Part shown: piece by piece, positions 6,016 to 50,104 of the stretch | How the letters are laid out: each line of letters begins with the position of its first letter | Numbering within the stretch: the first letter of the stretch is position 1 | From: Flavobacteriales bacterium | Lineage (GTDB): Bacteria > Bacteroidota > Bacteroidia > Flavobacteriales_F > PHOS-HE28 | DNA: 64,000 nucleotides | NCBI GenBank assembly: GCA_044507815.1 | Contig: JBIQIX010000010.1 | Coordinates: 68,431-132,430, forward strand | Direction of reading: 5' to 3' | The notes under the pieces: model-generated | Seen by the model: only the letters and a program-made list of their open reading frames with translations | Databases searched by the model: none | What the model was told of the DNA's origin: nothing | Made by a program: the position numbers and the translations under genes

Positions 6016-6052
6016 GGCATCCGCCGCAAGGGAAAAGCACATACCTTTGTGC

Positions 6053-6151
6053 GGGGCAAGTCTCGTACGTCCAGCTCCTGCTGAATCCCCCAGGGCCGGA
6101 AGGCAGCAAGGGTAGGCGGTTGTAGCGGAGCGATGCGAGGAGCTTGCCCCA
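6053..6151 (+). ncRNA. ffs: signal recognition particle RNA (4.5S / SRP RNA, small bacterial type)
   Basis: 5' GGGGCAAG pairs with 3' CTTGCCCC. The internal CCAGGGCCGGAAGGCAGCAAGGGUAGG matches the conserved SRP domain IV consensus (CCAGGUCAGGUCCGGAAGGAAGCAGCCAAGGCAG in E. coli). A T-tract terminator (ACTTTTTTT) follows, and the locus lies in an intergenic gap. Confidence 0.8.
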
Positions 6152-6159
6152 CTTTTTTT
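6152..6159 (+). terminator. T-tract following the SRP RNA closing helix
   Basis: CTTTTTTT immediately 3' of the terminal helix of ffs. Confidence 0.5.
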
Positions 6160-35030: not shown

Positions 35031-36236
35031 CTATCCCGCGTGCACCGTGGGCCCCGCAACAAGCACCAGCTCCTCCTCCACCTGCAGGGCCAGCAGGTCC
35101 TCCATGGTCTCGCGGCGGCGGATCAGCAGCAGTTTGCCATCCTTTACCAGCACCTCCGCAGGGCGGGGCCGCGAATTGTAATTGCTGGCCATGCTGAAGC
35201 CGTATGCGCCGGCATTCAGGAACGCGAGAAGGTCCCCTTCATGCACCTCCGCCAATTGCCGGTCCCAAGCAAAGGTGTCCGTTTCGCAGATGTAGCCCAC
35301 CACCGTGTAGATCCGCTTGTTGCCATGCGGATTGCTGGCATTCACCAGGCCATGGTAGCTGCCGTACAGCATGGGCCTGATCAAATGGTTCAACCCGCTG
35401 TCCACGCCCACGAAAGTGGTGGCGGTGGTCTGCTTCACCAGCGAGGCCGTGGCCAGCAGTACCCCGGCCTCGCTCACCAGGTACTTGCCCGGCTCAAACC
35501 ACAGCTCCACCGGTTGTTCCCGCTGCGCGTTAAAGGCCAGGATGCGCTCGCAAAGGCGCGCGCCCAACTCCTCCACATCGGTGGCTATATCGTCCGGCTT
35601 GTACGGCACCTTGAAGCCGCTGCCCAGATCGAGGTAGCGCAGCGCGGGAAAAAGGGCGGCCGTCTCCAGCAGCAGCTCGGCCGCGCGCAGGAAAACGCCC
35701 GTGTCCAGGATATCGCTGCCGGTGTGCATGTGCAAACCCTCCACGCGCAGCCCGTGCGAGGCCACAATGCGCTCCACATGGCGCAACTGGTGTATGCTGA
35801 TCCCGAATTTGCTGTCGATATGGCCGGTACTGATCCGCTCATTGCCGCCCGCCATGATATGCGGATTGATGCGGATGAACACCGGCACCTTTCCGCCGTA
35901 CCGCGCCCCGAAACGCTCCAGCATGGGGATGCTGTCGATGTTGATGTGCACCCCCAATTCCACCGCCCGCTCATATTCCCCGAAGGGCACCATGTTGGGG
36001 GTGAACAACACCTCCCCGGGCCGGAACCCGGCCTTCAGGCCCAGTTCCACCTCCTGGATGCTCACCGTGTCCAGCCCCAGCCCCAGGCCGCGCATGTGCT
36101 TCAGCACCGCCTGGTTCGTCAACGCCTTGCACGCGTACATGAAACGCGTGGGCGTGGCCTCGAAAGCCTTCCTCAAGCGCGCCGCCTGCCGATCGATCAA
36201 GGCCGCATCATACACGTAGGCCGGCGAACCCGCCAT
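35031..36236 (-). CDS. lysA: diaminopimelate decarboxylase
   Basis: Fold-type III decarboxylase (YACKA PLP lysine, DLGSGF, C-terminal EPGRYLV-like). Start at MAGSPAYVYD. Confidence 0.85.
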   Translation of the reverse strand: MAGSPAYVYDAALIDRQAARLRKAFEATPTRFMYACKALTNQAVLKHMRGLGLGLDTVSIQEVELGLKAGFRPGEVLFTPNMVPFGEYERAVELGVHINIDSIPMLERFGARYGGKVPVFIRINPHIMAGGNERISTGHIDSKFGISIHQLRHVERIVASHGLRVEGLHMHTGSDILDTGVFLRAAELLLETAALFPALRYLDLGSGFKVPYKPDDIATDVEELGARLCERILAFNAQREQPVELWFEPGKYLVSEAGVLLATASLVKQTTATTFVGVDSGLNHLIRPMLYGSYHGLVNASNPHGNKRIYTVVGYICETDTFAWDRQLAEVHEGDLLAFLNAGAYGFSMASNYNSRPRPAEVLVKDGKLLLIRRRETMEDLLALQVEEELVLVAGPTVHAG

Positions 36237-36365
36237 GGCAACAATATCCAGTACCCGCACCCCTCCGATGCAGTACTCCCCCCCGCTCAATTGCATTTGT
36301 CAGTATGGTTGGAAAGGCCGCGAAGCTATCCACCGCCCCCATGCACCCCATCATCGGCCATGCCA

Positions 36366-36530
36366 ACCGTTGGAAAACCAAACGCACCGTTCAAAACCCG
36401 ATCGGTGTAATCGGCGCAATCGTCAATCGGTGCAATCGGTGGAAAAAACCCAGTCGGCCAATCGGTGCAATCAGTGTAATCGGTGGAAAAAACCCAGTCG
36501 GCCAATCGGTGTAATCGGTGGACAAAAAAC
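36366..36530. repeat. tandem array of ~10 AATCGGTG(N) 9-bp units with a nested ~45-bp higher-order repeat (two copies)
   Basis: Read directly. The plus strand shows units gatcggtgt, aatcggcgc, aatcgtc, aatcggtgc, aatcggtgg, ...aatcggtgg. The block aatcggtggaaaaaacccagtcggccaatcggtg[c/t]aatc occurs twice. Intergenic, between the stop of the CoA-binding gene and the lysA start. Confidence 0.8.
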
Positions 36531-36541
36531 CCACCAACCCC

Positions 36542-36925
36542 TCAGAATTGCCCCGTATGCAACAACACCAGCGTACAAGCCTCCAACGTCTCTATCCCCG
36601 CAGCCCTGGCCTTCTCCTCAAAATCCTCGTTCTCCGCCCCTGGATTGAAAATGATGCGCTCCGGCTTCATCGCCAGCACCTTCTCCTGCCACTGCTCCTG
36701 ATTATGCGCATTCAGGTACAGGGTAACCGTATTCACCCGGGTACCTTCGGGAATATCCTTTTGAATGGGCACCCCGGCCACCTCCCCTTCGCGCAGGCCC
36801 ACGGCCACCACGGGATGTCCGTACTTCCGCAGGTCGCGGATCGCCCGGTTGGAATAGCGGTCCTCGTTCATGCTCGCGCCCAGCAACAATGTCTTTTTTC
36901 CCTCGGCCATTTTTTTCAGCGCCAA
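36542..36925 (-). CDS. CoA-binding domain protein (YccU-like)
   Basis: 127 aa. KTLLLGASMNEDRYSNRAIRDLRKYGHPVVAVG is typical of the small CoA-binding family. Confidence 0.6.
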   Translation of the reverse strand: MALKKMAEGKKTLLLGASMNEDRYSNRAIRDLRKYGHPVVAVGLREGEVAGVPIQKDIPEGTRVNTVTLYLNAHNQEQWQEKVLAMKPERIIFNPGAENEDFEEKARAAGIETLEACTLVLLHTGQF

Positions 36926-39823: not shown

Positions 39824-40108
39824 CTAGGGGTTCAGCAAGGCCAGGCAGCGGTCGATCTCATGCACCAGTTCGTCGATCTTTTCCTTCGTTCCTTCACGGG
39901 CCGGCCGCAATGCGGCCTTCTCGTTGCGAAGTACCTCGTTCTCCTGCTCCAGCTCCTGCACGCGCGACCTCAATACCTCGCGCTCCCGGTCCATTTCCCG
40001 GTGGCGGAGTTCGAGCTGCGCCAAGGACCTGGCCAAACGCGCCTCATTGGCACGAAGGTCTTTCACCTTCGCATGCGCCAATTTGACCCGTTCCACCAGT
40101 GATCCCAT
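39824..40108 (-). CDS. small coiled-coil protein (ZapB-like position upstream of zapA)
   Basis: 94 aa, predicted entirely coiled coil (LRxELEQENEVLRNEKAAL). Confidence 0.45.
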   Translation of the reverse strand: MGSLVERVKLAHAKVKDLRANEARLARSLAQLELRHREMDREREVLRSRVQELEQENEVLRNEKAALRPAREGTKEKIDELVHEIDRCLALLNP

Positions 40109-40220
40109 AGCTGGACAAAAGACCGTTATGGTCCGTGGCCAAATATAATGGCGATCCCACGTCGCACCTATTGTGCGGGCATTTTAGCTGCGTTTTGGGC
40201 TTTCGGCCCGGTGGCGCCTG

Positions 40221-42068
40221 CTACTCTTTTACAAAGGCCGCGCTTTGCGTGCTGCTGCCGCCGGGCAATACCACCCGCAGGCTGTACCAGCCCTTGGCGA
40301 GCTGGCCGGTGGGCAGTTCGCCCTTCACCTGTCCGCGCCACATTCCTTGTGCTTGCCGGGCCACCACGCGGCCCAGGGCGTCCTGCACCTCCAGGCTTCC
40401 GGTGCCCTCATCGGTGCTGGTGAACAGCACTTGCAGCCGGTCGCGGGCGGGATTGGGGAAAAGCACAGGCCTGCCCCAGGCCATGCCGCCCATGAAGGCC
40501 ACCACCACCTCGGACAGTTCGGCCCTGCCGTCCACATCCACTTGGTTCAGCCGGTAATAATTGGCGCCGCTCAGGGGTGCATCGTCGGTGAACAGGTATT
40601 CCACGCGCTGCTGGCTGTTGCGCATGGCGGCCACCTGGCCCACCGTGTGGAACGTATTGCCGTCGGCGCTGCGCTGCACCTCGAAGTAGGCGGCATCCTG
40701 CTCGGTGGCGGTGGCCCACAGTACATCGATCGTGGAAACGCGCGCCCGGGCATCAAGGGACAACAGTTCCACGGGCAGCGTGGTGCAGTTGAGCGAGGTG
40801 CCCCCGGTAAGGTTCCAGGTGAGGCTGAAGTTCTGGCCGGTGGCCGACCAATTGTCGATGTACAGCACGTACACCTTGCCGGCCAGCACGTTCAGCGGCG
40901 CAACCCATCCGTTGTTCGAATTGGGGGGTCTGCCGGCCCCTTCCGAAAAATCCGTTGCACCGTTGCCCATTCCGCCCACGTACGAGTTGTAATAAGCATT
41001 GTCGAAATAACTGCACCGCACAGGAGGCACGTTTGGGCATTGTGCCGCATCAAACGGGCCCCACAGGGCAAAATCGTAATCATCGTTCCCGGACGGCGTT
41101 AGCGTGAAGCCCAGCGTGCCGGCCGTGCTGGGGGAGAAGAAGTACCAGGAACCTTGGCGTTCGTTGTTCAACAGGCAACCGCGATTGGTGGCGTTAAGAT
41201 CGATCGAGCATCCGGGCGTTGTGGCATTCTGGGTAATGCTTTGGCCGCTGCATACGGTAACGCCCCCAACGCAATCCTGGGGTTGTGCAGCTGTGGAAGC
41301 CGTGCAGCTCGCTATTATCTTGTATGGCTTATTCTGCATAACCGGCCGGTCGGTACGGAAGAGGCATTGACCAGCACCGGTCACCTCAAAAGAATTCTGG
41401 GTATAGTACAATGCTCCACCCGAATAATAGATGAATTGTACCTCATCCCCCTCATTCACCCAAATGTCCGCCACACCGGCAGAGCCTGAGTTCAAGGTCC
41501 ATGCGCCCATGTTCATGCCATTAACCAATACCACAACGTATGCAGTACCCACCCAATCACTCCAGCCGTTGTTCCCTGAATCGTACAAATGGAGTTCCAA
41601 TTTGCATTGTACATTATATAGGCACAATGTCCCGTTCATGGCGCTGTTGTTTGTGCCTTGCACCCGCACGTAATAGCGCGTGCCGGGCACGGTGGCCACC
41701 GTCACCTGTTCGGCACCGTTGGCCCCCAGGTTATCGGCGCATGCCAGCACGGGGCCCGTGCACGAGGCGAGCACGTGCAGAATGGCATCCGCCCCGCTGG
41801 TTGTCGGCGTGTATTTCACCAAGGTGGCGGTGCTGGTGGCCACGAACGACCCCCAGGCATCGTCCAAGCTGCTGGCACCGCAGCCGCCCGGGTTGTAGGT
41901 GGCCGTGTAACTGGAGGGCTTGTTGAAGCCCAGCGGCACGCAGGTGCCATTTACCGGATAGGTATTGGCCGCGGCATTGGTGCACGCATTGCTGCTGTTT
42001 TGCCCGTGCAGCTGGCCGCTGAACAGGGCCATAACGCACGCCATCGGTGGAAGTAGGATCGAACGCAT
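40221..42068 (-). CDS. secreted hypothetical protein with T9SS C-terminal sorting domain
   Basis: Signal peptide. Cys-containing, N/T/G-rich beta-rich body. C-terminal LFPNPARDRLQVLF...WYSLRVVLPGGSSTQSAAFVKE T9SS-type domain. Confidence 0.6.
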   Translation of the reverse strand: MRSILLPPMACVMALFSGQLHGQNSSNACTNAAANTYPVNGTCVPLGFNKPSSYTATYNPGGCGASSLDDAWGSFVATSTATLVKYTPTTSGADAILHVLASCTGPVLACADNLGANGAEQVTVATVPGTRYYVRVQGTNNSAMNGTLCLYNVQCKLELHLYDSGNNGWSDWVGTAYVVVLVNGMNMGAWTLNSGSAGVADIWVNEGDEVQFIYYSGGALYYTQNSFEVTGAGQCLFRTDRPVMQNKPYKIIASCTASTAAQPQDCVGGVTVCSGQSITQNATTPGCSIDLNATNRGCLLNNERQGSWYFFSPSTAGTLGFTLTPSGNDDYDFALWGPFDAAQCPNVPPVRCSYFDNAYYNSYVGGMGNGATDFSEGAGRPPNSNNGWVAPLNVLAGKVYVLYIDNWSATGQNFSLTWNLTGGTSLNCTTLPVELLSLDARARVSTIDVLWATATEQDAAYFEVQRSADGNTFHTVGQVAAMRNSQQRVEYLFTDDAPLSGANYYRLNQVDVDGRAELSEVVVAFMGGMAWGRPVLFPNPARDRLQVLFTSTDEGTGSLEVQDALGRVVARQAQGMWRGQVKGELPTGQLAKGWYSLRVVLPGGSSTQSAAFVKE

Positions 42069-42239
42069 GGCAAACCCGGATCAAAGAGCAACCAAAAAGA
42101 AGCATTTATTCGACGAATGTCAAATGCTAACACATGAATGTTGAATAATAGACGATTAAATTACGGGAAACCCCCCAAAATCGGGAGGGGATGCGGCCAT
42201 GCCGCCCCGCATTCACACGGTTTGCTTCACGTTTGCCGT

Positions 42240-42865
42240 TCAGGCGGCCCGCCCCAGCACCGGTTCGCTGGGCAGGCCCTCGCCCATGGCGCCCACGGCG
42301 GTTACCCGGAACCAATAGGCCCTGTAAGGTTCCAGGCCCTGCATCAAGTGCGCCACTTTGCCGGTTACCGCGGCCAAGCGCCATTCGGCCCCTTCGTTGG
42401 TGGGCAGTTGCTCGCAAATAGCAATGTGGTAGATGCGTCGGTTGCGCACCCCGCTCCACCTGAGTTCCATTTCGCCGCTTCGGCCTGTCATACGGGTGCC
42501 AATTATGGTGGGGGCCGGCAGTACTTGGGGCTGTGCGGGCTTTTTGGCCAGGCCGAAGCCTGAGCTTTCGATCATGGCCGCATTGCCGGCGGCCTGCATG
42601 CGCACATAATCGGCCATGCGCCGCAGTACGGCACAAACCGCCTGTACCTGGTCGTCGCGCTGAAGCTTGCTGGCCCGGCTGCCCTCATGGGCCTCGGTGA
42701 TGGCCAGTCCCAGGCGGTCGGCCATTTCCTCCAGTTGCGCCGCTGCCACCGGCGGTGCGGGGAAGTCCGGATTGTCCTTCATGCCCGTTGCCACATGCAG
42801 GGCAAGTTCGCGTACCCGGGCGGGGGTGAGCCCCTTGAGGCCAAGTTTGAGGCTTGCTTTCATGA
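42240..42865 (-). CDS. hypothetical protein with C-terminal fibronectin-III-like domain
   Basis: Start moved to MKASLKLGLKG (208 aa). C-terminal ELRWSGVRNRRIYHIAICE...YWFRVTAVGAMGEG resembles an FN3 fold. No signal peptide. Confidence 0.4.
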
Positions 42866-43239
42866 TCTTATCGACGGTTTTGGTGCATTTCGCCCACGAA
42901 TTGGTGCTTGGAAGGGCAATACGTCCGACAGGGTTACCGGGCGTGCCCGGCCGGTTGCGGTGCCTGTGCCGAGCGGCAGGCCGTGGCATGCCGCGCGTGC
43001 CGCGGCTTGGCCCCGCCTGCATGGCCGCCCCCTGGCGGCCGGATGCGGCCATGCCCCCTGTTGGATGCCGGGCCGGGTGCGGGAGGGTGAAGGGCCTTAC
43101 CCAAGCGGCGGGCTCTCCGCTACCCAACGGGTGATGGCTTGCACCCAAGAGGATGCCGAGTGGCCCCCGCACGGTGCCGCGGCCGCCTGCGCCCGGGTAT
43201 TGCGGCCCACCCTGCCGCTTGGTGCACACACCTTGCGGA

Positions 43240-43455
43240 AGATGCAGGTGAGGAAGGAGATGAAGGTGAGGTAAGGAGAGGAAGGAGAAGAAGGTCAGGA
43301 ACGAGAGGAAGGTGATGAAGGAACGACCTCCCTTACCCTACTTACCTCCCTTACCCTCCTCACTAACTTTACCAAACACCGAAGGTGCGGCAGGAAAAGA
43401 AGGAAATGCAGGAGAGGAAGGTGAGGAAAGAGATGAAGGAACGCGCAAACAGCAG
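43240..43455. repeat. purine-rich (GAAGGA-like) / pyrimidine-rich low-complexity block with inverted-repeat potential
   Basis: Read directly: a ~75-nt GA-rich run (gaggaaggagatgaaggtgaggtaaggagagg...), a ~45-nt CT-rich run (cctcccttaccctacttacctcccttaccctcctc), then a ~65-nt GA-rich run. The CT run is complementary to GGTAAGGGAGG-type segments of the GA runs. Confidence 0.75.
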
Positions 43456-45541: not shown

Positions 45542-47871
45542 GGGCGGGCGTGGGCTTGGGGGGTGCGTTTGCGCATGGCCTCGATCAGGCGGGCCTTTTG
45601 GGCATCGGTATAGCCCGGCAAGGTGGCCAGTTGGCCGCTGGCGGCGCGGAACTCGGCCAGGTTGAGCGGCCGGTCGTTGGCCAGCAGTTCGATCAGGTTC
45701 AATTGGTCGTGCAGGTCGGCCACGTACAGGGCGTGCGTTTCCGCGGTGGTCCACAGCTGGTTGGTCAGGTCGCCCAGGGAGAACCCGCCGCTGCGGTTCC
45801 AGTCCTCACGCCCCCGCATGGTGGGCAGGTGGCGGTTCCGCTGGGTGAAGCGGGCCATTTCCTCCACGCTCAGCAGCCGCTGCCGGCCGAAATCCGCGGC
45901 CTCGGCGGCCGCCACCCGGCCATCGAAGGCGCGGTCGAACACGTGGTCGTTCAGCCTTACCCCATTGTCGTAAATGCCTTTCTGCGCACTGATGGTGCCG
46001 TTGCCGGCGTAATTCCAATAGGTGTACAGGTTGGGGAACCCTGGCCGCATGCGGCCCCAGGGCAGGCCCGGGCTCATGCTGTTGATCCGGGCGGCAGCCG
46101 TGCTGTCCTCCAAGATCAACGCACCGGGGTAGGAGATGAAATTCGCCGTGCCGGATGGAACTGGACCCGAAACGCTGGACACCGTGCCCCCGAAACGGAT
46201 GATCGGGCGGTATTTCGATGGACCCCGATTATAGCCAGTTGGCCCGCCGGAGACCGTACCCAAATCCGGGAACAGCAATTGCTTATTTAGGGTGGCGGGG
46301 TTGAAAAGTGCCTGCGGGCCCCACGCCGCGTTGGGGTACGGGTTGGTGAGCGGCACGTAGGGCGGAGTAGGACTCACCGATTTCGTATTCGCAGCGTAGG
46401 TCATGTTATTCGCTGCCGATGGTATGCACCGAACATTCGCAGGACCACCATAAGTTGATCCAATTGCAATTGCGACAACCAGTTCCACAATGATCGGGCT
46501 TTTCCCGTCCCAAATGAACGGCGTGGTCAGGTTAACCATGTCCCAGCCTTGGACACCAACGGGCACGTTCGGCCATTGCGCGGGGAGAGGCCCCCAACCG
46601 GTGCTCGCTGGATCGCTGGGCGGTGTGTTGTCGAAGCCATCCAGCCGATCAAGGCCAAGCGGTGCGTTGCGCACGATGATATGGGATTGACCCGGCATGG
46701 TCGACTCTTGATAACCACCACTAGAGTTATTCACATAAAAGCCCACTTGGTTCACCGGCTGGTGGGGGCACAGCCCCTGTTCGGCCAATGGGTTCACGGC
46801 CTGCGAAAGCTCCAAGTTGAGTTCGCTGGGCAAGTACAGGTATTGGTGCCGATATTTTGGAATATACAGGTTTGGTGGTGCTATAGGATTCCGCCAATAT
46901 GGACTCACCAGTTCCTTTTCCGTTGTCCCGTTCACCACAGCAGTTAAGCTATTGGACCCAATGATCGGGTTGGGTGCTGGCGAGGGGATCTCTGTAAAAC
47001 TGTTCGGGGTGCATACCGGTTCCCTCACATCGGTCCACGCTTTCCCCGCCACCACCTTGTAGGGGTTTTCGAAGGCCCGCCACCCTCCCCTGCTGGGTTG
47101 GGTAAATGTAGGGGGGGCGGTGCTGGTGGAATTGCCGGGCTTCGGCCCGCGGCCATCCACATTGCCCCAATGGGCGGCATAAAACAAGGGGGCCAAGGCG
47201 TTGTTCACCGTGCCCACCACATCGGATGATATGATGGCCGTAGCAAACTCCTTCTCTTCCAGGCTGCCGAGCTTGTAGGGGCCTGTGCCCATCAGCGTGC
47301 CGAAAGGTTGGTTGCGCACCACGCCCGGGGCATTGGTATCGCTGGGTTTTTGCCCGGCTGGTGGTTCGTAATAGATCTGCAGCCTGCCATTGATGTCCAA
47401 CCGCTCCTGGGGCGGCGTGCCAGCTGTATAACCCACGGCCAAATAGCCGGTGGTGCCGCTGAGGTGCATGCGGTGCAGGTTGTTGGTGCGGAAGTTCAAC
47501 GGCTTGCCATCGGTGGTGCCGATGAAATTGGGATTGGGGGTGCCCACCAAGTGGTTGCCGTGCAGGTCCCAATTGTTCTTGCCCGCCTCCAGCGGTTTCC
47601 ATACGCCGCCATCCACCACGTTGAAGCCGCCCCCGGCGCCGGTGCGGTACATGGTAAGCCCATCGGGCAGCCCGGCCGCGGCCGGCAGGCTTGCGGTGCG
47701 GGGGATCAGCAGCCCTTGGCTGATGGAGGAAAGATCAAGCAGGGCCTTGGGGTGCGCTGCCGCTCCCGTGGTGTTAATGGCAATGTTGCCATTCTGTGCC
47801 CAGGCCACCCCGGCCGTGGCCAGCAACAGCCCCAGGGCCGCCGAACGGGCGATGCGGTTATGGTTGCTCAT
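45538..47871 (-). CDS. secreted paralog B of the same family
   Basis: Signal peptide MSNHNRIARSAALGLLLATAGVAWAQ. The same N-module (NIAINTTGAAAHPKALLDLSSISQGLLIPRTASLPAAAGLPDGLTMYRTG) and C-module (HLPTMRGREDWNRSGGFSLGDLTNQLWTTAETHALYVADL). ATGA coupling on both sides. Confidence 0.6.
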   Translation of the reverse strand: MSNHNRIARSAALGLLLATAGVAWAQNGNIAINTTGAAAHPKALLDLSSISQGLLIPRTASLPAAAGLPDGLTMYRTGAGGGFNVVDGGVWKPLEAGKNNWDLHGNHLVGTPNPNFIGTTDGKPLNFRTNNLHRMHLSGTTGYLAVGYTAGTPPQERLDINGRLQIYYEPPAGQKPSDTNAPGVVRNQPFGTLMGTGPYKLGSLEEKEFATAIISSDVVGTVNNALAPLFYAAHWGNVDGRGPKPGNSTSTAPPTFTQPSRGGWRAFENPYKVVAGKAWTDVREPVCTPNSFTEIPSPAPNPIIGSNSLTAVVNGTTEKELVSPYWRNPIAPPNLYIPKYRHQYLYLPSELNLELSQAVNPLAEQGLCPHQPVNQVGFYVNNSSGGYQESTMPGQSHIIVRNAPLGLDRLDGFDNTPPSDPASTGWGPLPAQWPNVPVGVQGWDMVNLTTPFIWDGKSPIIVELVVAIAIGSTYGGPANVRCIPSAANNMTYAANTKSVSPTPPYVPLTNPYPNAAWGPQALFNPATLNKQLLFPDLGTVSGGPTGYNRGPSKYRPIIRFGGTVSSVSGPVPSGTANFISYPGALILEDSTAAARINSMSPGLPWGRMRPGFPNLYTYWNYAGNGTISAQKGIYDNGVRLNDHVFDRAFDGRVAAAEAADFGRQRLLSVEEMARFTQRNRHLPTMRGREDWNRSGGFSLGDLTNQLWTTAETHALYVADLHDQLNLIELLANDRPLNLAEFRAASGQLATLPGYTDAQKARLIEAMRKRTPQAHARP

Positions 47872-49937
47872 GGCTTGGTGGTAAGGGTGGTTTTGTGGCG
47901 AATGGCCTGCACCAAATGCTCTTTTTGCGGTGGCGTAAGCCGTTTGCTCTCCTGTATTTCCTTGATCAGTTCACCGGCACGCTCGGCCGAAATGGGCCCG
48001 CCGAAGCTCATTTCCTCCAAGGCGGCCAGGTCCTTTTCCAACTGGCTGATGTACAGGGCCTGGTCCTCCACGGTTTGCCACAGGCCGGTGGCCAGCTTGC
48101 CCAAGCTTGCGCCCCCTGTGCTTTCCCATTGCTGGCGGCTGGGCATGTTGGGCAGGTGCCGTTGTTTTTCGAGCGTTTCGCGCAGTTGCGGCAGGCCGAT
48201 GTAGGCATAGCCCACGGCCGCGGCCTCATCGGCGGGCTTCACCACGCCATCGAAATAGCGGTCGAACACATGGTCGCTGAGCAGGGTATTGCCATCGTAC
48301 ACGCCGCGTTGCGCCTTCACATTGCCCGGACCCCGGAAGGGTGTGCTGTTGGCCCAAGCATTGTCGCCGATGTGCACCGAGCCATCGTACTGCAGAATAT
48401 TGGCCTGCCGGGTAACGGTGCTGGGGGTGGCCACGGTGGCGGTGAAGCGGGTAACGGGGCGCCAATTATGGATCCCGACCGAAGTTGAAGGCGGTGCCGG
48501 GTTATCCCACAACGCTGCGCGACTGCCCAAATTAGAATTGGGATTTTGGGTGTTGATCACATACTTGGTCCGGTTATACCCGGTGATCTGCTGCAATTCC
48601 ACTTTCGGGCCAACCCCTGTACCCACGCTCCGGCTCCAGTTGATGTCGATCACCAGGTTCTGGCCCACATTCAGCGTAATGGGGTTGGTGAGGTTGAAGG
48701 TGATCCAGCCGGGGGCCGGCGTTAAAAGAGTGAATGAGCCACGGACCGGGGTTTGTGTGCGGATGTTGGCGTCCATCCATCCAAAATAGGGATCTGGATT
48801 GAGCAATGTGCCGGCTGAAGGCGCGCCTCCACGGATCTCCCCTTCCAACCGCGTTGCCCCGGTGGGGTTGTCCAGGGTCTCCTGGTCCAAGCAGAAAAAA
48901 GCGATCTCGGTAATGGTGGCCGGGAAGCAGATGCCCGCTTGCACCAATTCGTTATAGCTATATACGTATTGTACCCGGTATTCGCCCTGGACCCCCGTGC
49001 CGTACGGCCCGTAGTTGGTGGCAAAAGGACTGTAGATGTTGGCGGGGCTATTGGTGGTATTTGTTACCGGCACGGGGCTGAGCACGCCTGTTTGGGCATA
49101 GCCCTGCCCACCCTGGCAGGCCACGGTATCCTTGAGGAAATTGCGCGGCGGCGAGATCAGGTTCTCGGCATTGTCCATTTGCGCCCAATAGGGCTTGGAG
49201 CTGCCGATGCCGGTCAGGCCGGTGTCCAATGTTCCCCAGAAGGCATTGGGGTTGGCGATTGTTTGCGCGCCGCCGTCCAGCGTGCCGTAGCGCATGGCAC
49301 CGGGCCTGGGATCGGCCATGGGGGTGCCGTTGCGCAGCCTGATGCCGCCATTCACCTCCAAGCGTTCGGTGGCCGGCCCCGGTGTGCCCAGGCCCACGAA
49401 GCCGCTTTTTACGTCCACCAGGTTGTACCCCATGCGCCATGCGGGCTCGGGGGCGGTGGCCACGGGCACGGAACGCATCCAAAGTTCCTTGTACGGCGAT
49501 GCGGTGCGGGTGCCCAGGAACTCCATGGCGCCGGTGGCCACATTGCCCACGGCATTGCCGCCGAGCAGCCAGGAGCGCATGGCATGGCTAAGGTGGCGCC
49601 ATTGGTTGGGCGCCGTATTGGCGTCCCAGTACCAAAGGCCCCGTGCGTTGGTGGTATCGGCGCTGGCGCCCACATCGGTCTGGTACACCAAAAGCCCGTT
49701 ATCCGCAGGCGTGGTGGCAATGGCCAGTCGCTGGGCCTCGGTCATGCGCGGCACCAACAGGCCCCGCTTGGATTGCGAGGACGGAATGTCGGTAACATCC
49801 AGGTCCAGCATGGCGGCCGGGTTGGGCGCCGCCGGTGGCGTTTTCACGTTGATCCCTACGTTCTGGGCCTGCGCAAGGAGGCAGGATGCGAGGGCGGTCA
49901 ACAACAGTTGTGCTCGAAGGCGTAACCGTATGGGCAT
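47868..49937 (-). CDS. secreted paralog C of the same family
   Basis: Start chosen at MPIRLRLRAQLLLTALASCLLAQAQ. N-module NVGINVKTPPAAPNPAAMLDLDV...RGLLVPRMTEAQRLAIATTPADNGLLVYQTD. C-module HLPNMPSRQQWESTGGASLGKLATGLWQTVEDQALYISQL. Confidence 0.6.
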   Translation of the reverse strand: MPIRLRLRAQLLLTALASCLLAQAQNVGINVKTPPAAPNPAAMLDLDVTDIPSSQSKRGLLVPRMTEAQRLAIATTPADNGLLVYQTDVGASADTTNARGLWYWDANTAPNQWRHLSHAMRSWLLGGNAVGNVATGAMEFLGTRTASPYKELWMRSVPVATAPEPAWRMGYNLVDVKSGFVGLGTPGPATERLEVNGGIRLRNGTPMADPRPGAMRYGTLDGGAQTIANPNAFWGTLDTGLTGIGSSKPYWAQMDNAENLISPPRNFLKDTVACQGGQGYAQTGVLSPVPVTNTTNSPANIYSPFATNYGPYGTGVQGEYRVQYVYSYNELVQAGICFPATITEIAFFCLDQETLDNPTGATRLEGEIRGGAPSAGTLLNPDPYFGWMDANIRTQTPVRGSFTLLTPAPGWITFNLTNPITLNVGQNLVIDINWSRSVGTGVGPKVELQQITGYNRTKYVINTQNPNSNLGSRAALWDNPAPPSTSVGIHNWRPVTRFTATVATPSTVTRQANILQYDGSVHIGDNAWANSTPFRGPGNVKAQRGVYDGNTLLSDHVFDRYFDGVVKPADEAAAVGYAYIGLPQLRETLEKQRHLPNMPSRQQWESTGGASLGKLATGLWQTVEDQALYISQLEKDLAALEEMSFGGPISAERAGELIKEIQESKRLTPPQKEHLVQAIRHKTTLTTKP

Positions 49938-50104
49938 GGGTAATGCATGGGTTGGGCGAAGACGAAGATAGGCATTTGCCGAAGCTGGCAAAGCCTTTGG
50001 GTTGGTGAGGTGGAAGGGATCCGGGGTTAGGGTTGTTGGGCTTCCACGTTGTGGAAGACGTGCGGGTTGTATGGTGGTTGCTTTTGTTGAAAAATTTTTC
50101 GGCC

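Follow-up and report, generated by a model that had tools for sequence, protein, structure and literature searches.

Plasmid or phage iterons are direct repeats of 17-22 bp, located beside a rep gene, an AT-rich region and DnaA boxes. Like the arrays bound by ribbon-helix-helix proteins (the omega heptads and the MetJ boxes), they are contiguous short direct repeats, found in direct and inverted sets, that are read by multimeric proteins. In the ORF-bearing intervening sequences of 23S rRNA, a small ORF is located in a long stem inside a transcribed region and is co-oriented with it. REP sequences are imperfect palindromes of 20-40 bp that are tagged by GTAG or CGTC (PMC3733652), and for the STRRs of cyanobacteria a contribution to the stability of transcripts or to translational coupling has been suggested (PMC2670836).

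Here, we study a 9-bp repeat located between a CoA-binding gene and lysA in a 64-kb stretch of a Flavobacteriales genome; below, the window refers to this whole stretch. Pfam matches agree with the initial annotation of the two flanking genes, both on the minus strand, and an epimerase and RNase Y are also found in the neighbourhood. On balance, we lean towards the explanation that a single arm of a palindromic repeat, which is widespread between genes, is present here three times in tandem, and that the array is a one-armed, amplified and inert relic.

TRF reports a 9-bp tandem array at 36401-36485 with 9.8 copies, and a higher-order repeat of 44 bp at 36411-36520 (2.5 copies, 89% matches, score 176). 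The exact unit CACCGATT is found 11 times in the window when both strands are counted, and six of these copies are on the minus strand within 36425-36520. By chance, 2.2 +/- 1.4 exact copies are expected per 64 kb on both strands, and a count of 11 was reached in none of 100 shuffles. Together with the copies that have one mismatch (36400, 36409 and 36469) and a truncated unit, ACGATT, at 36418-36423, there are in total about ten 9-mers of the CACCGATT type. They have a period of 9 bp and are on the minus strand, i.e. the coding strand of both flanking genes. This is in agreement with the about ten direct copies in this orientation that were initially annotated.

The repeat proper covers 36400-36526 on the minus strand and consists of three blocks, with 2, 3 and 5 units, and a GGCCGACTGGGTTTTTT linker between one block and the next, see Table 1. 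The tandem repeat first described is present, but as three blocks and not as a uniform run. A run of T and a TCCAC "cap" are found ahead of each block. Along the coding strand the TGA of the CoA-binding gene is followed by GGGGTTGGTGGG-T6, block 1 as GTC-CACCGATT-A-CACCGATT, the linker GGCCGACTGGG-T6, block 2 preceded by C, the linker again, and block 3, also preceded by C. The first CCAC of the array is 17 nt past this TGA. The interval first assigned to the array, 36366-36530, does contain it, but the first 34 nt (36366-36399) hold only a degenerate look-alike, CAACCGTTGGAAAA, which may be an older copy that has decayed.

Two 44-nt copies, 36424-36467 and 36468-36511, are 95% identical to each other in a repeat search, and three GGGTTTTTT runs are present (approximately 36525-36533, 36486-36494 and 36442-36450). 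This agrees with the initial description of a duplicated longer block that carries such runs. The nested higher-order repeat is also present, although its unit is 44 bp and not 45. Within linker 1, GCCGACTGG is itself a degenerate 9-mer. In the linker behind the stop codon, GGTTGGTGG can pair, if G-U pairs are included, with the first CCACCGATT over a T-run loop, and a local hairpin is seen there in the RNA fold, although the z-score of the region as a whole is only -1.3.

Table 1. Features between and including the two genes that flank the array (positions in the window).
Feature	Position	Strand	Evidence and remarks
CoA_binding_2 gene	36542..36925	-	Pfam PF13380, E 1e-22; TGA stop at 36544-36542
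Post-stop linker GGGGTTGGTGGGTTT	36527..36541	-	Read from sequence
Block 1: T-run tail and cap (TTGTC), then CACCGATT-A-CACCGATT; 2 units	36504..36526	-	Sequence
Linker 1: GGCCGACTGGGTTTTTT(C)	36486..36503	-	Exact 17-mer found twice in the window, both inside the array
Block 2: CACCGATT-A-CACTGATT-G-CACCGATT; 3 units	36460..36485	-	Exact canonical triple CACNGATTNCACNGATTNCACNGATT
Linker 2: GGCCGACTGGGTTTTTT(C), second copy	36442..36459	-	Sequence
Block 3: CACCGATT-G-CACCGATT-G-ACGATT-G-CGCCGATT-A-CACCGATC; 5 units, 1 truncated, 2 mutated	36400..36441	-	Sequence
Arm end and A-run look-alike CAACCGTTGGAAAA	36364..36377	+	Repeat search; degenerate, 86% to CAATCGGTGGAAAA
TAGCTTCG, putative -7 box of lysA	36321..36328	-	24 nt ahead of ATG; 71 nt downstream of last repeat unit
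lysA (Orn/DAP decarboxylase; diaminopimelate decarboxylase)	35031..36296	-	Pfam PF02784 and PF00278; homologues named diaminopimelate decarboxylase

The initial annotation proposed that the array could modulate lysA. In such a case the iterated units would bind a regulator of lysine biosynthesis, or they would form a tract whose phase variation tunes the lysA promoter, and both the iteration and the location of the array, 71-205 nt upstream of the putative -7 box, are consistent with this. However, none of four relatives (lysA identity 81-87%) has the array upstream of lysA. Three of them, with lysA identities of 81-85%, share the gene order and have spacers of 100, 90 and 149 nt between the CoA-binding gene and lysA, without a CACCGATT array; in the fourth (L123, lysA identity 87%) the upstream gene is another one and the array is absent too. 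As it is missing in the relatives, the ~145-nt array is a lineage-specific addition right behind the upstream stop codon.

The sole conserved block in the five aligned lysA upstream regions is TAnnTTCG(C/T)(G/C)GCCT, about 20-25 nt before the ATG. A -7/-33 promoter type has been described in Bacteroidota (PMC7366714), and the TAnnTTCG box has the form of its -7 element, which suggests a role as the lysA promoter. At the gathering threshold no Rfam family, the lysine riboswitch included, matches over the array; in 36200-36650 all matches are at chance level, with E up to 5. Slipped-strand variation in copy number had also been suggested. Two other assemblies of the same strain have the same copy number and one substitution. 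Variation is therefore not seen, although with n=2 and short reads this is weak evidence. One contig of this strain (L122, from Logan) ends inside the array, suggesting that the repeat breaks short-read assemblies.

Further, arrays of the same type are found in unrelated intergenic contexts in many phyla and on phage-like contigs, which argues against a lysA-specific element, also in the terms of the initial annotation itself. The reading of the array as a lysA regulator is not supported. It is already largely refuted, and we consider cis-regulation of lysA highly unlikely; the array is probably inert with respect to this gene.

We now turn to these other arrays. In species-representative genomes the scan pattern CACCGATTNCACCGATT, with 16 specified bases, returns mostly chance matches (about 280 are expected in 596 Gb by our own estimate) plus real intergenic arrays among the matches listed. 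Among these matches, the same motif design is seen in MAGs of Acidobacteriota, Planctomycetota, Verrucomicrobiota, Hydrogenedentota, Chloroflexota, Nitrospirota and Bacteroidota. Units of the CACAGATT, CACGGATT and CGCAGATG types are mixed inside single loci. In metagenomes, three consecutive CACNGATT units are found in at least 120 contigs.

The family has a well-defined geometry. Among the matches listed from 120 metagenome contigs, 136 of the 137 exact arrays contain exactly three units. In the arrays listed an A-N-C cap is found ahead of the first unit, with A at position -3 in 65% and C at position -1 in 76%, and the middle base N of CACNGATT is A in 52%, G in 37%, T in 7% and C in 4%; the CACCGATT units of the window (N = C) belong to this last and rarest subtype. 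A downstream inverted arm, pairing over at least 16 of 26 nt, follows 61% of the arrays listed, and the paired arms among them have their caps outward in 52 cases versus 1. Partner arms also resemble each other: in 7 of 10 pairs at least four of the five variable positions are common to both arms, versus 11% by chance.

For most loci the gene context is derived from a crude longest-ORF caller. When an ORF on the same strand is located upstream, the array starts 1-20 nt past its stop in 27 of 50 cases among the matches listed. Of the 55 hairpins assigned to a gene context among these matches, 35 are between co-directional, 11 between convergent and 9 between divergent genes. In a cultured species, Bacteroides finegoldii, such hairpins are found immediately past the stops of leuS and rny.

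In IMG/VR, the true triple is found in 59 stretches versus 14 and 6 for two scrambled 9-mers, i.e. the scrambled units are 4-10 times rarer. One phage-like contig of 29.7 kb (3300037264_001851; L135/L136) contains six canonical triples between genes. Three of these triples begin with a perfect TTATCCACA, and two then continue into a GC hairpin. Judging from ORF translations, a large and a small terminase possibly form a pair on this contig.

An Rfam scan that covered the entire window together with 18 loci bearing arrays and 7 bearing hairpins finds no bacterial family that covers the arrays, and only miRNA-hairpin matches at chance level. The repeat sequence, used as text, gives no match in the literature searched. 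The repeat design is very abundant and crosses phyla, and we found no description of it in this literature.

Some related arrangements were observed in the course of these scans. In three Hydrogenedentota MAGs (L009, L031 and L077) a CACCGATT triple is located within a dispersed repeat of about 200 bp, which also holds a GC hairpin, ACGGGCG-TCT-CGCCCGT, and an array of the CGCAGAGG type. Other hairpins have arms of three to four tandem 7-9-mers of unrelated sequence (L179, L188, L092 and L104, and the control loci L310, L317 and L320), such as GGAGTACT and GTGGTCA/TTGGTCA, or ACCCTAGTA, for which an inverted partner is present. Arms of tandem repeats are therefore a broader design than the CACNGATT motif.

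The first unit of many arrays is similar to TTATCCACA, and the arrays could in principle be clusters of DnaA boxes that titrate DnaA or block transcription. The three perfect first units in the phage-like L136 fit this, and the window has TTGTCCACC. However, only 25% of the arrays among the matches listed have a T at position -2, the counterpart of the conserved T4 in a DnaA box, internal units match 5-6 of the 9 positions, and the head-to-tail spacing of 9 bp leaves no gap between boxes. With TTGTCCACC, the best window unit, at 7 of 9 positions and with cap statistics that do not fit, we rejected the DnaA boxes, which we find barely credible as an explanation.

How well does the window array fit the family? 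It has the C-R-C-N-G-A-T-K unit, the 9-10-bp period, the polarity, the TCCAC start, the post-stop position and, in block 2, one exact canonical triple. Block 2 has the canonical number of units, versus 2 and 5 in blocks 1 and 3. The window cap is TTC or GTC versus A-N-C in the family: C is found at -1 in all three blocks, and T or G at -3. No inverted partner arm is found by repeat search in 36250-36600, and no ORF of the 64-kb window matches the profile of GxxExxY, a gene that is found with this family, see below.

The unit counts, the cap and the missing partner arm deviate from the canonical element, and they would be expected if the window array were an independent minisatellite, i.e. a local, functionless 9-bp expansion by replication slippage and unequal recombination, unrelated to the cross-phylum family. 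The spacers of relatives also bear unrelated short arrays, for example GGATGATC and GGCCACA in L127, and the controls with scrambled units show that other 9-mer triples exist too. However, one block is an exact canonical triple, every block begins with TCCAC behind a T-run as in L034 and L080, and the array starts 17 nt past a stop codon, as in the family.

Further, an independent origin has to be weighed against a Bacteroidota MAG of 63% GC (L056) that has the arm and the A-run linker in common with the window. In this MAG there is a canonical hairpin of the same CACCGATT subtype, with a DNA fold z of -5.2, and its tandem arms, separated by A-run linkers, are 73-83% matches to the window array. 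It bridges the window array to the family, and we consider an independent minisatellite unlikely. The homology between the window array and the family is indirect: it would follow from the motif design, the post-stop position and this bridge, and not from a full-length alignment.

We also considered that the array might act on the mRNA of the CoA-binding gene, by Rho loading, termination or 3'-end protection, and insulate this gene from lysA. The sense orientation and the start 17 nt past the stop are consistent with such a function, as is the location of the family's sense arrays, of which 27 of 50 among the matches listed are at most 20 nt away from a stop codon. So are the A-tract and U-tract flanks on some hairpins, for example in L152 and L172, and a mild local C>=G stretch, compared with the G-rich coding flanks, with 6-8 YC dinucleotides per 60 nt. 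REP and STRR are credited with roles of this kind (PMC2670836).

However, a promoter and terminator scan of the spacer finds no terminator-like site and nothing else of relevance, the RNA fold is not significant on either strand (z = -1.3 and -0.4), C equals G across the array (26% each), and units of the common CACAGATT subtype are without YC. In the family, a comparison of the hairpin fold with the gene direction gives 16 versus 22 with 10 ties, i.e. no strand preference, and hairpins are found between divergent genes too (9 of the 55 among the matches listed). An intrinsic terminator was rejected: the T-runs precede the arms and are not behind a hairpin, and there is neither a site nor a significant fold. 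The same is true for a Rho rut site, given that the C>=G stretch is weak and relative and the YC dinucleotides are not conserved in the family, and for strand-specific selection on RNA, given that gene-sense folds are no more stable.

The hairpins fold alike on both strands and are found between genes of all orientations, which does not favour a purely RNA-level, strand-specific role. A 3'-end or insulating function of the array is in our view distinctly improbable. Alternatively or additionally, the stems may have a function at the RNA level, in termination or stabilisation or as targets of RNase III; this would leave the conservation of CAC and GATT across phyla, next to free neighbours, unexplained. 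Coding potential was rejected by inspection, because 44 bp, the length of the higher-order unit, cannot be divided by three.

The window contains other features that should be mentioned. At 50108-50775 four copies of a 167-bp unit, 98% identical, fill the divergent spacer of a 756-aa ORF (47868..50138, minus strand) and a Peptidase_S51 gene (50793..51623, plus strand). The unit starts with AAC-CACGGATG-GA-CGCGGATG-CA-CACGGATC, which is a triple with a cap and a 10-bp period and belongs to the same superfamily, and GC-rich hairpins (CGACCCC-CTC-GGGGTCG) follow. At 43240-43450, between two minus-strand genes, a hairpin-type element consists of two 9-bp GAAGGNGAN arrays (8.4 and 6.7 copies) around an inverted CTTACCCTN block; its sense strand is C/U-rich, with 33% C and 19% G.

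The cumulative GC skew has its minimum at about 40000-43000, and the genes upstream are mostly on the minus strand; the minimum could be a replication landmark or a mere effect of gene strand. Between 60000 and 64000 the GC content drops from about 62% to 38-51%. This region encodes an N6/N4 DNA methylase (61301..63382) and a PIN-domain protein (63379..63747), and it is probably an acquired defence or toxin island. A small SRP RNA of the Bacteroidales type (Rfam RF04183, 106.7 bits) is found at 6047-6153, and a T9SS sorting domain is encoded in the window. Both agree with the homologues of lysA, by which the window belongs to a lineage of high-GC MAGs named "Flavobacteriales bacterium".

Next, we studied the genes located between the arms. 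In one locus (L212) an ORF of 130 aa between inverted arms matches TIGR04256, "GxxExxY protein", with E 9e-37 and PF13366, PDDEXK_3, with E 1e-33. A profile search of the 2.46 Mb of DNA retrieved gives four intact homologues. Three of these genes are exactly between CACNGATT arms (L212, L149 and L178), and the fourth is between analogous arms of the CAGAATTT type (L092). A frameshifted copy adjoins the hairpin in L164. By these profiles (PF13366/TIGR04256), the GxxExxY protein is a small PD-(D/E)XK nuclease. PF13366 is listed as of function unknown, with "multiple transfers" between divisions (PMC3424549). In the literature searched we found no paper that links GxxExxY to the repeats, and GxxExxY is mentioned in passing only.

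A second sample contained 13 GxxExxY loci picked by protein similarity alone. Clear inverted arms, with three 9-10-mers on each side, are present in ten of these (L330-L333 and L334-L339). In the four IMG/VR loci, L330-L333, the arms are CACGAAAA, CACGGATG, CGCGAAAAG and CAGGATTTA. In the genome and metagenome loci, L334-L339, the gene is located tightly between two genes of an operon and points in their direction, for example between leuC and leuD in two Mucilaginibacter species, between hsdR and hsdM, or between RND pump genes. The other three loci are from cultured genomes. In B. finegoldii a pair of three-unit arms, CAC-CACAGAGGA-CGCAGAGGA-CACGGAGGA and its inverse, encloses the GxxExxY gene (WP_032839887), which is located between radA and the gene of a FAD protein. 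In Treponema the arm pair is single-unit, and the Gemmatirosa copy has only an adjacent CGCGGAT x3 hairpin.

In summary, the full-size GxxExxY genes examined are located between such arms or beside such a hairpin in 4 of 4 loci selected by array and in 13 of 13 selected by protein. Fourteen of the 17 have clear three-unit arms on both sides, while one has single-unit arms, one an adjacent hairpin only, and one was not inspected.

Further, the arm motif tracks the clade of the protein. Five proteins that are 78-89% identical all have arms of the CAGRATTT type (CAGAATTT-type), clades with internal identities of 69-72% and 83% have CACAGATT or CGCAGATT arms, and more divergent proteins have other arm motifs. 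In L334 three tandem arms in the same orientation are found upstream of the GxxExxY gene, an amplification like that of the window array. The two leuC/leuD loci (L336 from Mucilaginibacter sp. and L339 from M. mali) both have CAGAATTT-type arms and proteins that are 79% identical; this site is either an old, stable insertion or the target of repeated homing. A GxxExxY protein of M. mali is encoded in CP054139 (1188742-1189934).

The initial annotation had also considered that the array looks like a set of protein-binding sites. At the level of the repeat family this is plausible, given that CAC and GATT do not vary while the positions separating them are free, that the count is fixed at three, and that the arm motif co-varies with the enclosed nuclease gene, but a link to lysA does not fit. 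Tentatively, as a possibility that we take seriously but would not call probable, the arrays of CACNGATT, together with the sister motifs CGCAGATG, CAGAATTT, CACGAAAA and CRCAGAGGA, may be the recognition arms of pan-bacterial palindromic elements, selfish or domesticated, that are run by GxxExxY PD-(D/E)XK nucleases. Each arm would contain three 9-bp sites, the gene-bearing elements would be located between operon genes, and the ORF-less hairpins would be their non-autonomous progeny.

A scenario that connects the window with the family would be as follows. The canonical arm consists of a short cap and exactly three 9-bp CACNGATT units, and a complete element of an arm, a loop and an inverted arm, with the caps outward, fitted tightly between genes and often less than 20 nt past a stop. 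Full-size elements carry the GxxExxY gene in the loop, and short ORF-less hairpins are far commoner. The arms are candidate recognition sites of the enclosed nuclease, with approximately one 9-bp unit per binding module, and the nuclease would spread or maintain the element. The hairpins that lack an ORF would derive from these elements and would not be autonomous, in analogy to REPINs and their RAYT transposases. Both the recognition of the arms by the nuclease and the mobility of the elements are candidate properties, and neither target-site duplications nor conserved termini were seen at the elements of the family.

At the window locus, we propose that arms of one orientation alone are left behind the stop of the CoA-binding gene, and that they have expanded by duplication of the 44-bp arm-plus-linker unit. 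The array would then be an inert relic that puts more distance between these two genes, the CoA-binding gene and lysA, and the conserved box between the array and lysA would presumably serve as the promoter of lysA.

For the window, the practical consequence is that annotating the array as a lysA operator or as an iteron, however tempting, would be a mistake. More generally, the hairpins matter for the annotation of terminators and sRNAs and for assembly gaps induced by repeats, in Bacteroidota and in MAGs from soil and sediment. If the nuclease reads the three-unit arms, the GxxExxY family gains a function, and naturally diversified pairings of 9-bp units and proteins are open to study. If the proposal as a whole is true, it describes a system like REPIN/RAYT that is built on an unrelated enzyme, and it gives a role to a large orphan protein family of Bacteroidota, Acidobacteriota, Planctomycetota and Chloroflexota.

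Finally, we compare the family with the known systems; these comparisons concern likeness of behaviour, not membership. Contiguous units in direct and inverted sets are shared with the iterons and the ribbon-helix-helix arrays. However, the units here are 9 bp, there is no rep or par gene nearby, and the location is chromosomal and dispersed. The co-oriented small ORF in a long stem is like that of the 23S rRNA intervening sequences, but the elements of the family are found between protein-coding genes.

As in MITEs, the non-autonomous derivatives of insertion sequences, short inverted-repeat elements without an ORF outnumber a gene-bearing parent, but here the palindrome reaches a variable distance past the arms and the enclosed protein is not a known transposase. 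Cyanobacterial STRRs are likewise intergenic, hairpin-forming tandem arrays of short units, of unknown function, and heptamer arrays similar to STRRs are seen in L092. STRRs have 7-bp units in variable copy number, whereas the family has units of 9-10 bp, exactly three per arm, a cap and a link to a nuclease gene; the period of the window array is 9 bp, not that of a heptanucleotide.

The REP/REPIN sequences with their RAYT (TnpA_REP) enzymes are similar in several respects. They too are short extragenic repeats, single or in inverted doublets that form hairpins, they are wedged between genes and can be abundant, and one enzyme gene is flanked by repeats whose sequence co-varies with the enzyme clade. 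In contrast to a REP, an arm of the family consists of three direct 9-mers and the GTAG or CGTC tag is absent. In place of the HUH Y1 transposase of the RAYTs, the associated gene here encodes a PD-(D/E)XK nuclease, GxxExxY, and it is located inside the loop of the hairpin.
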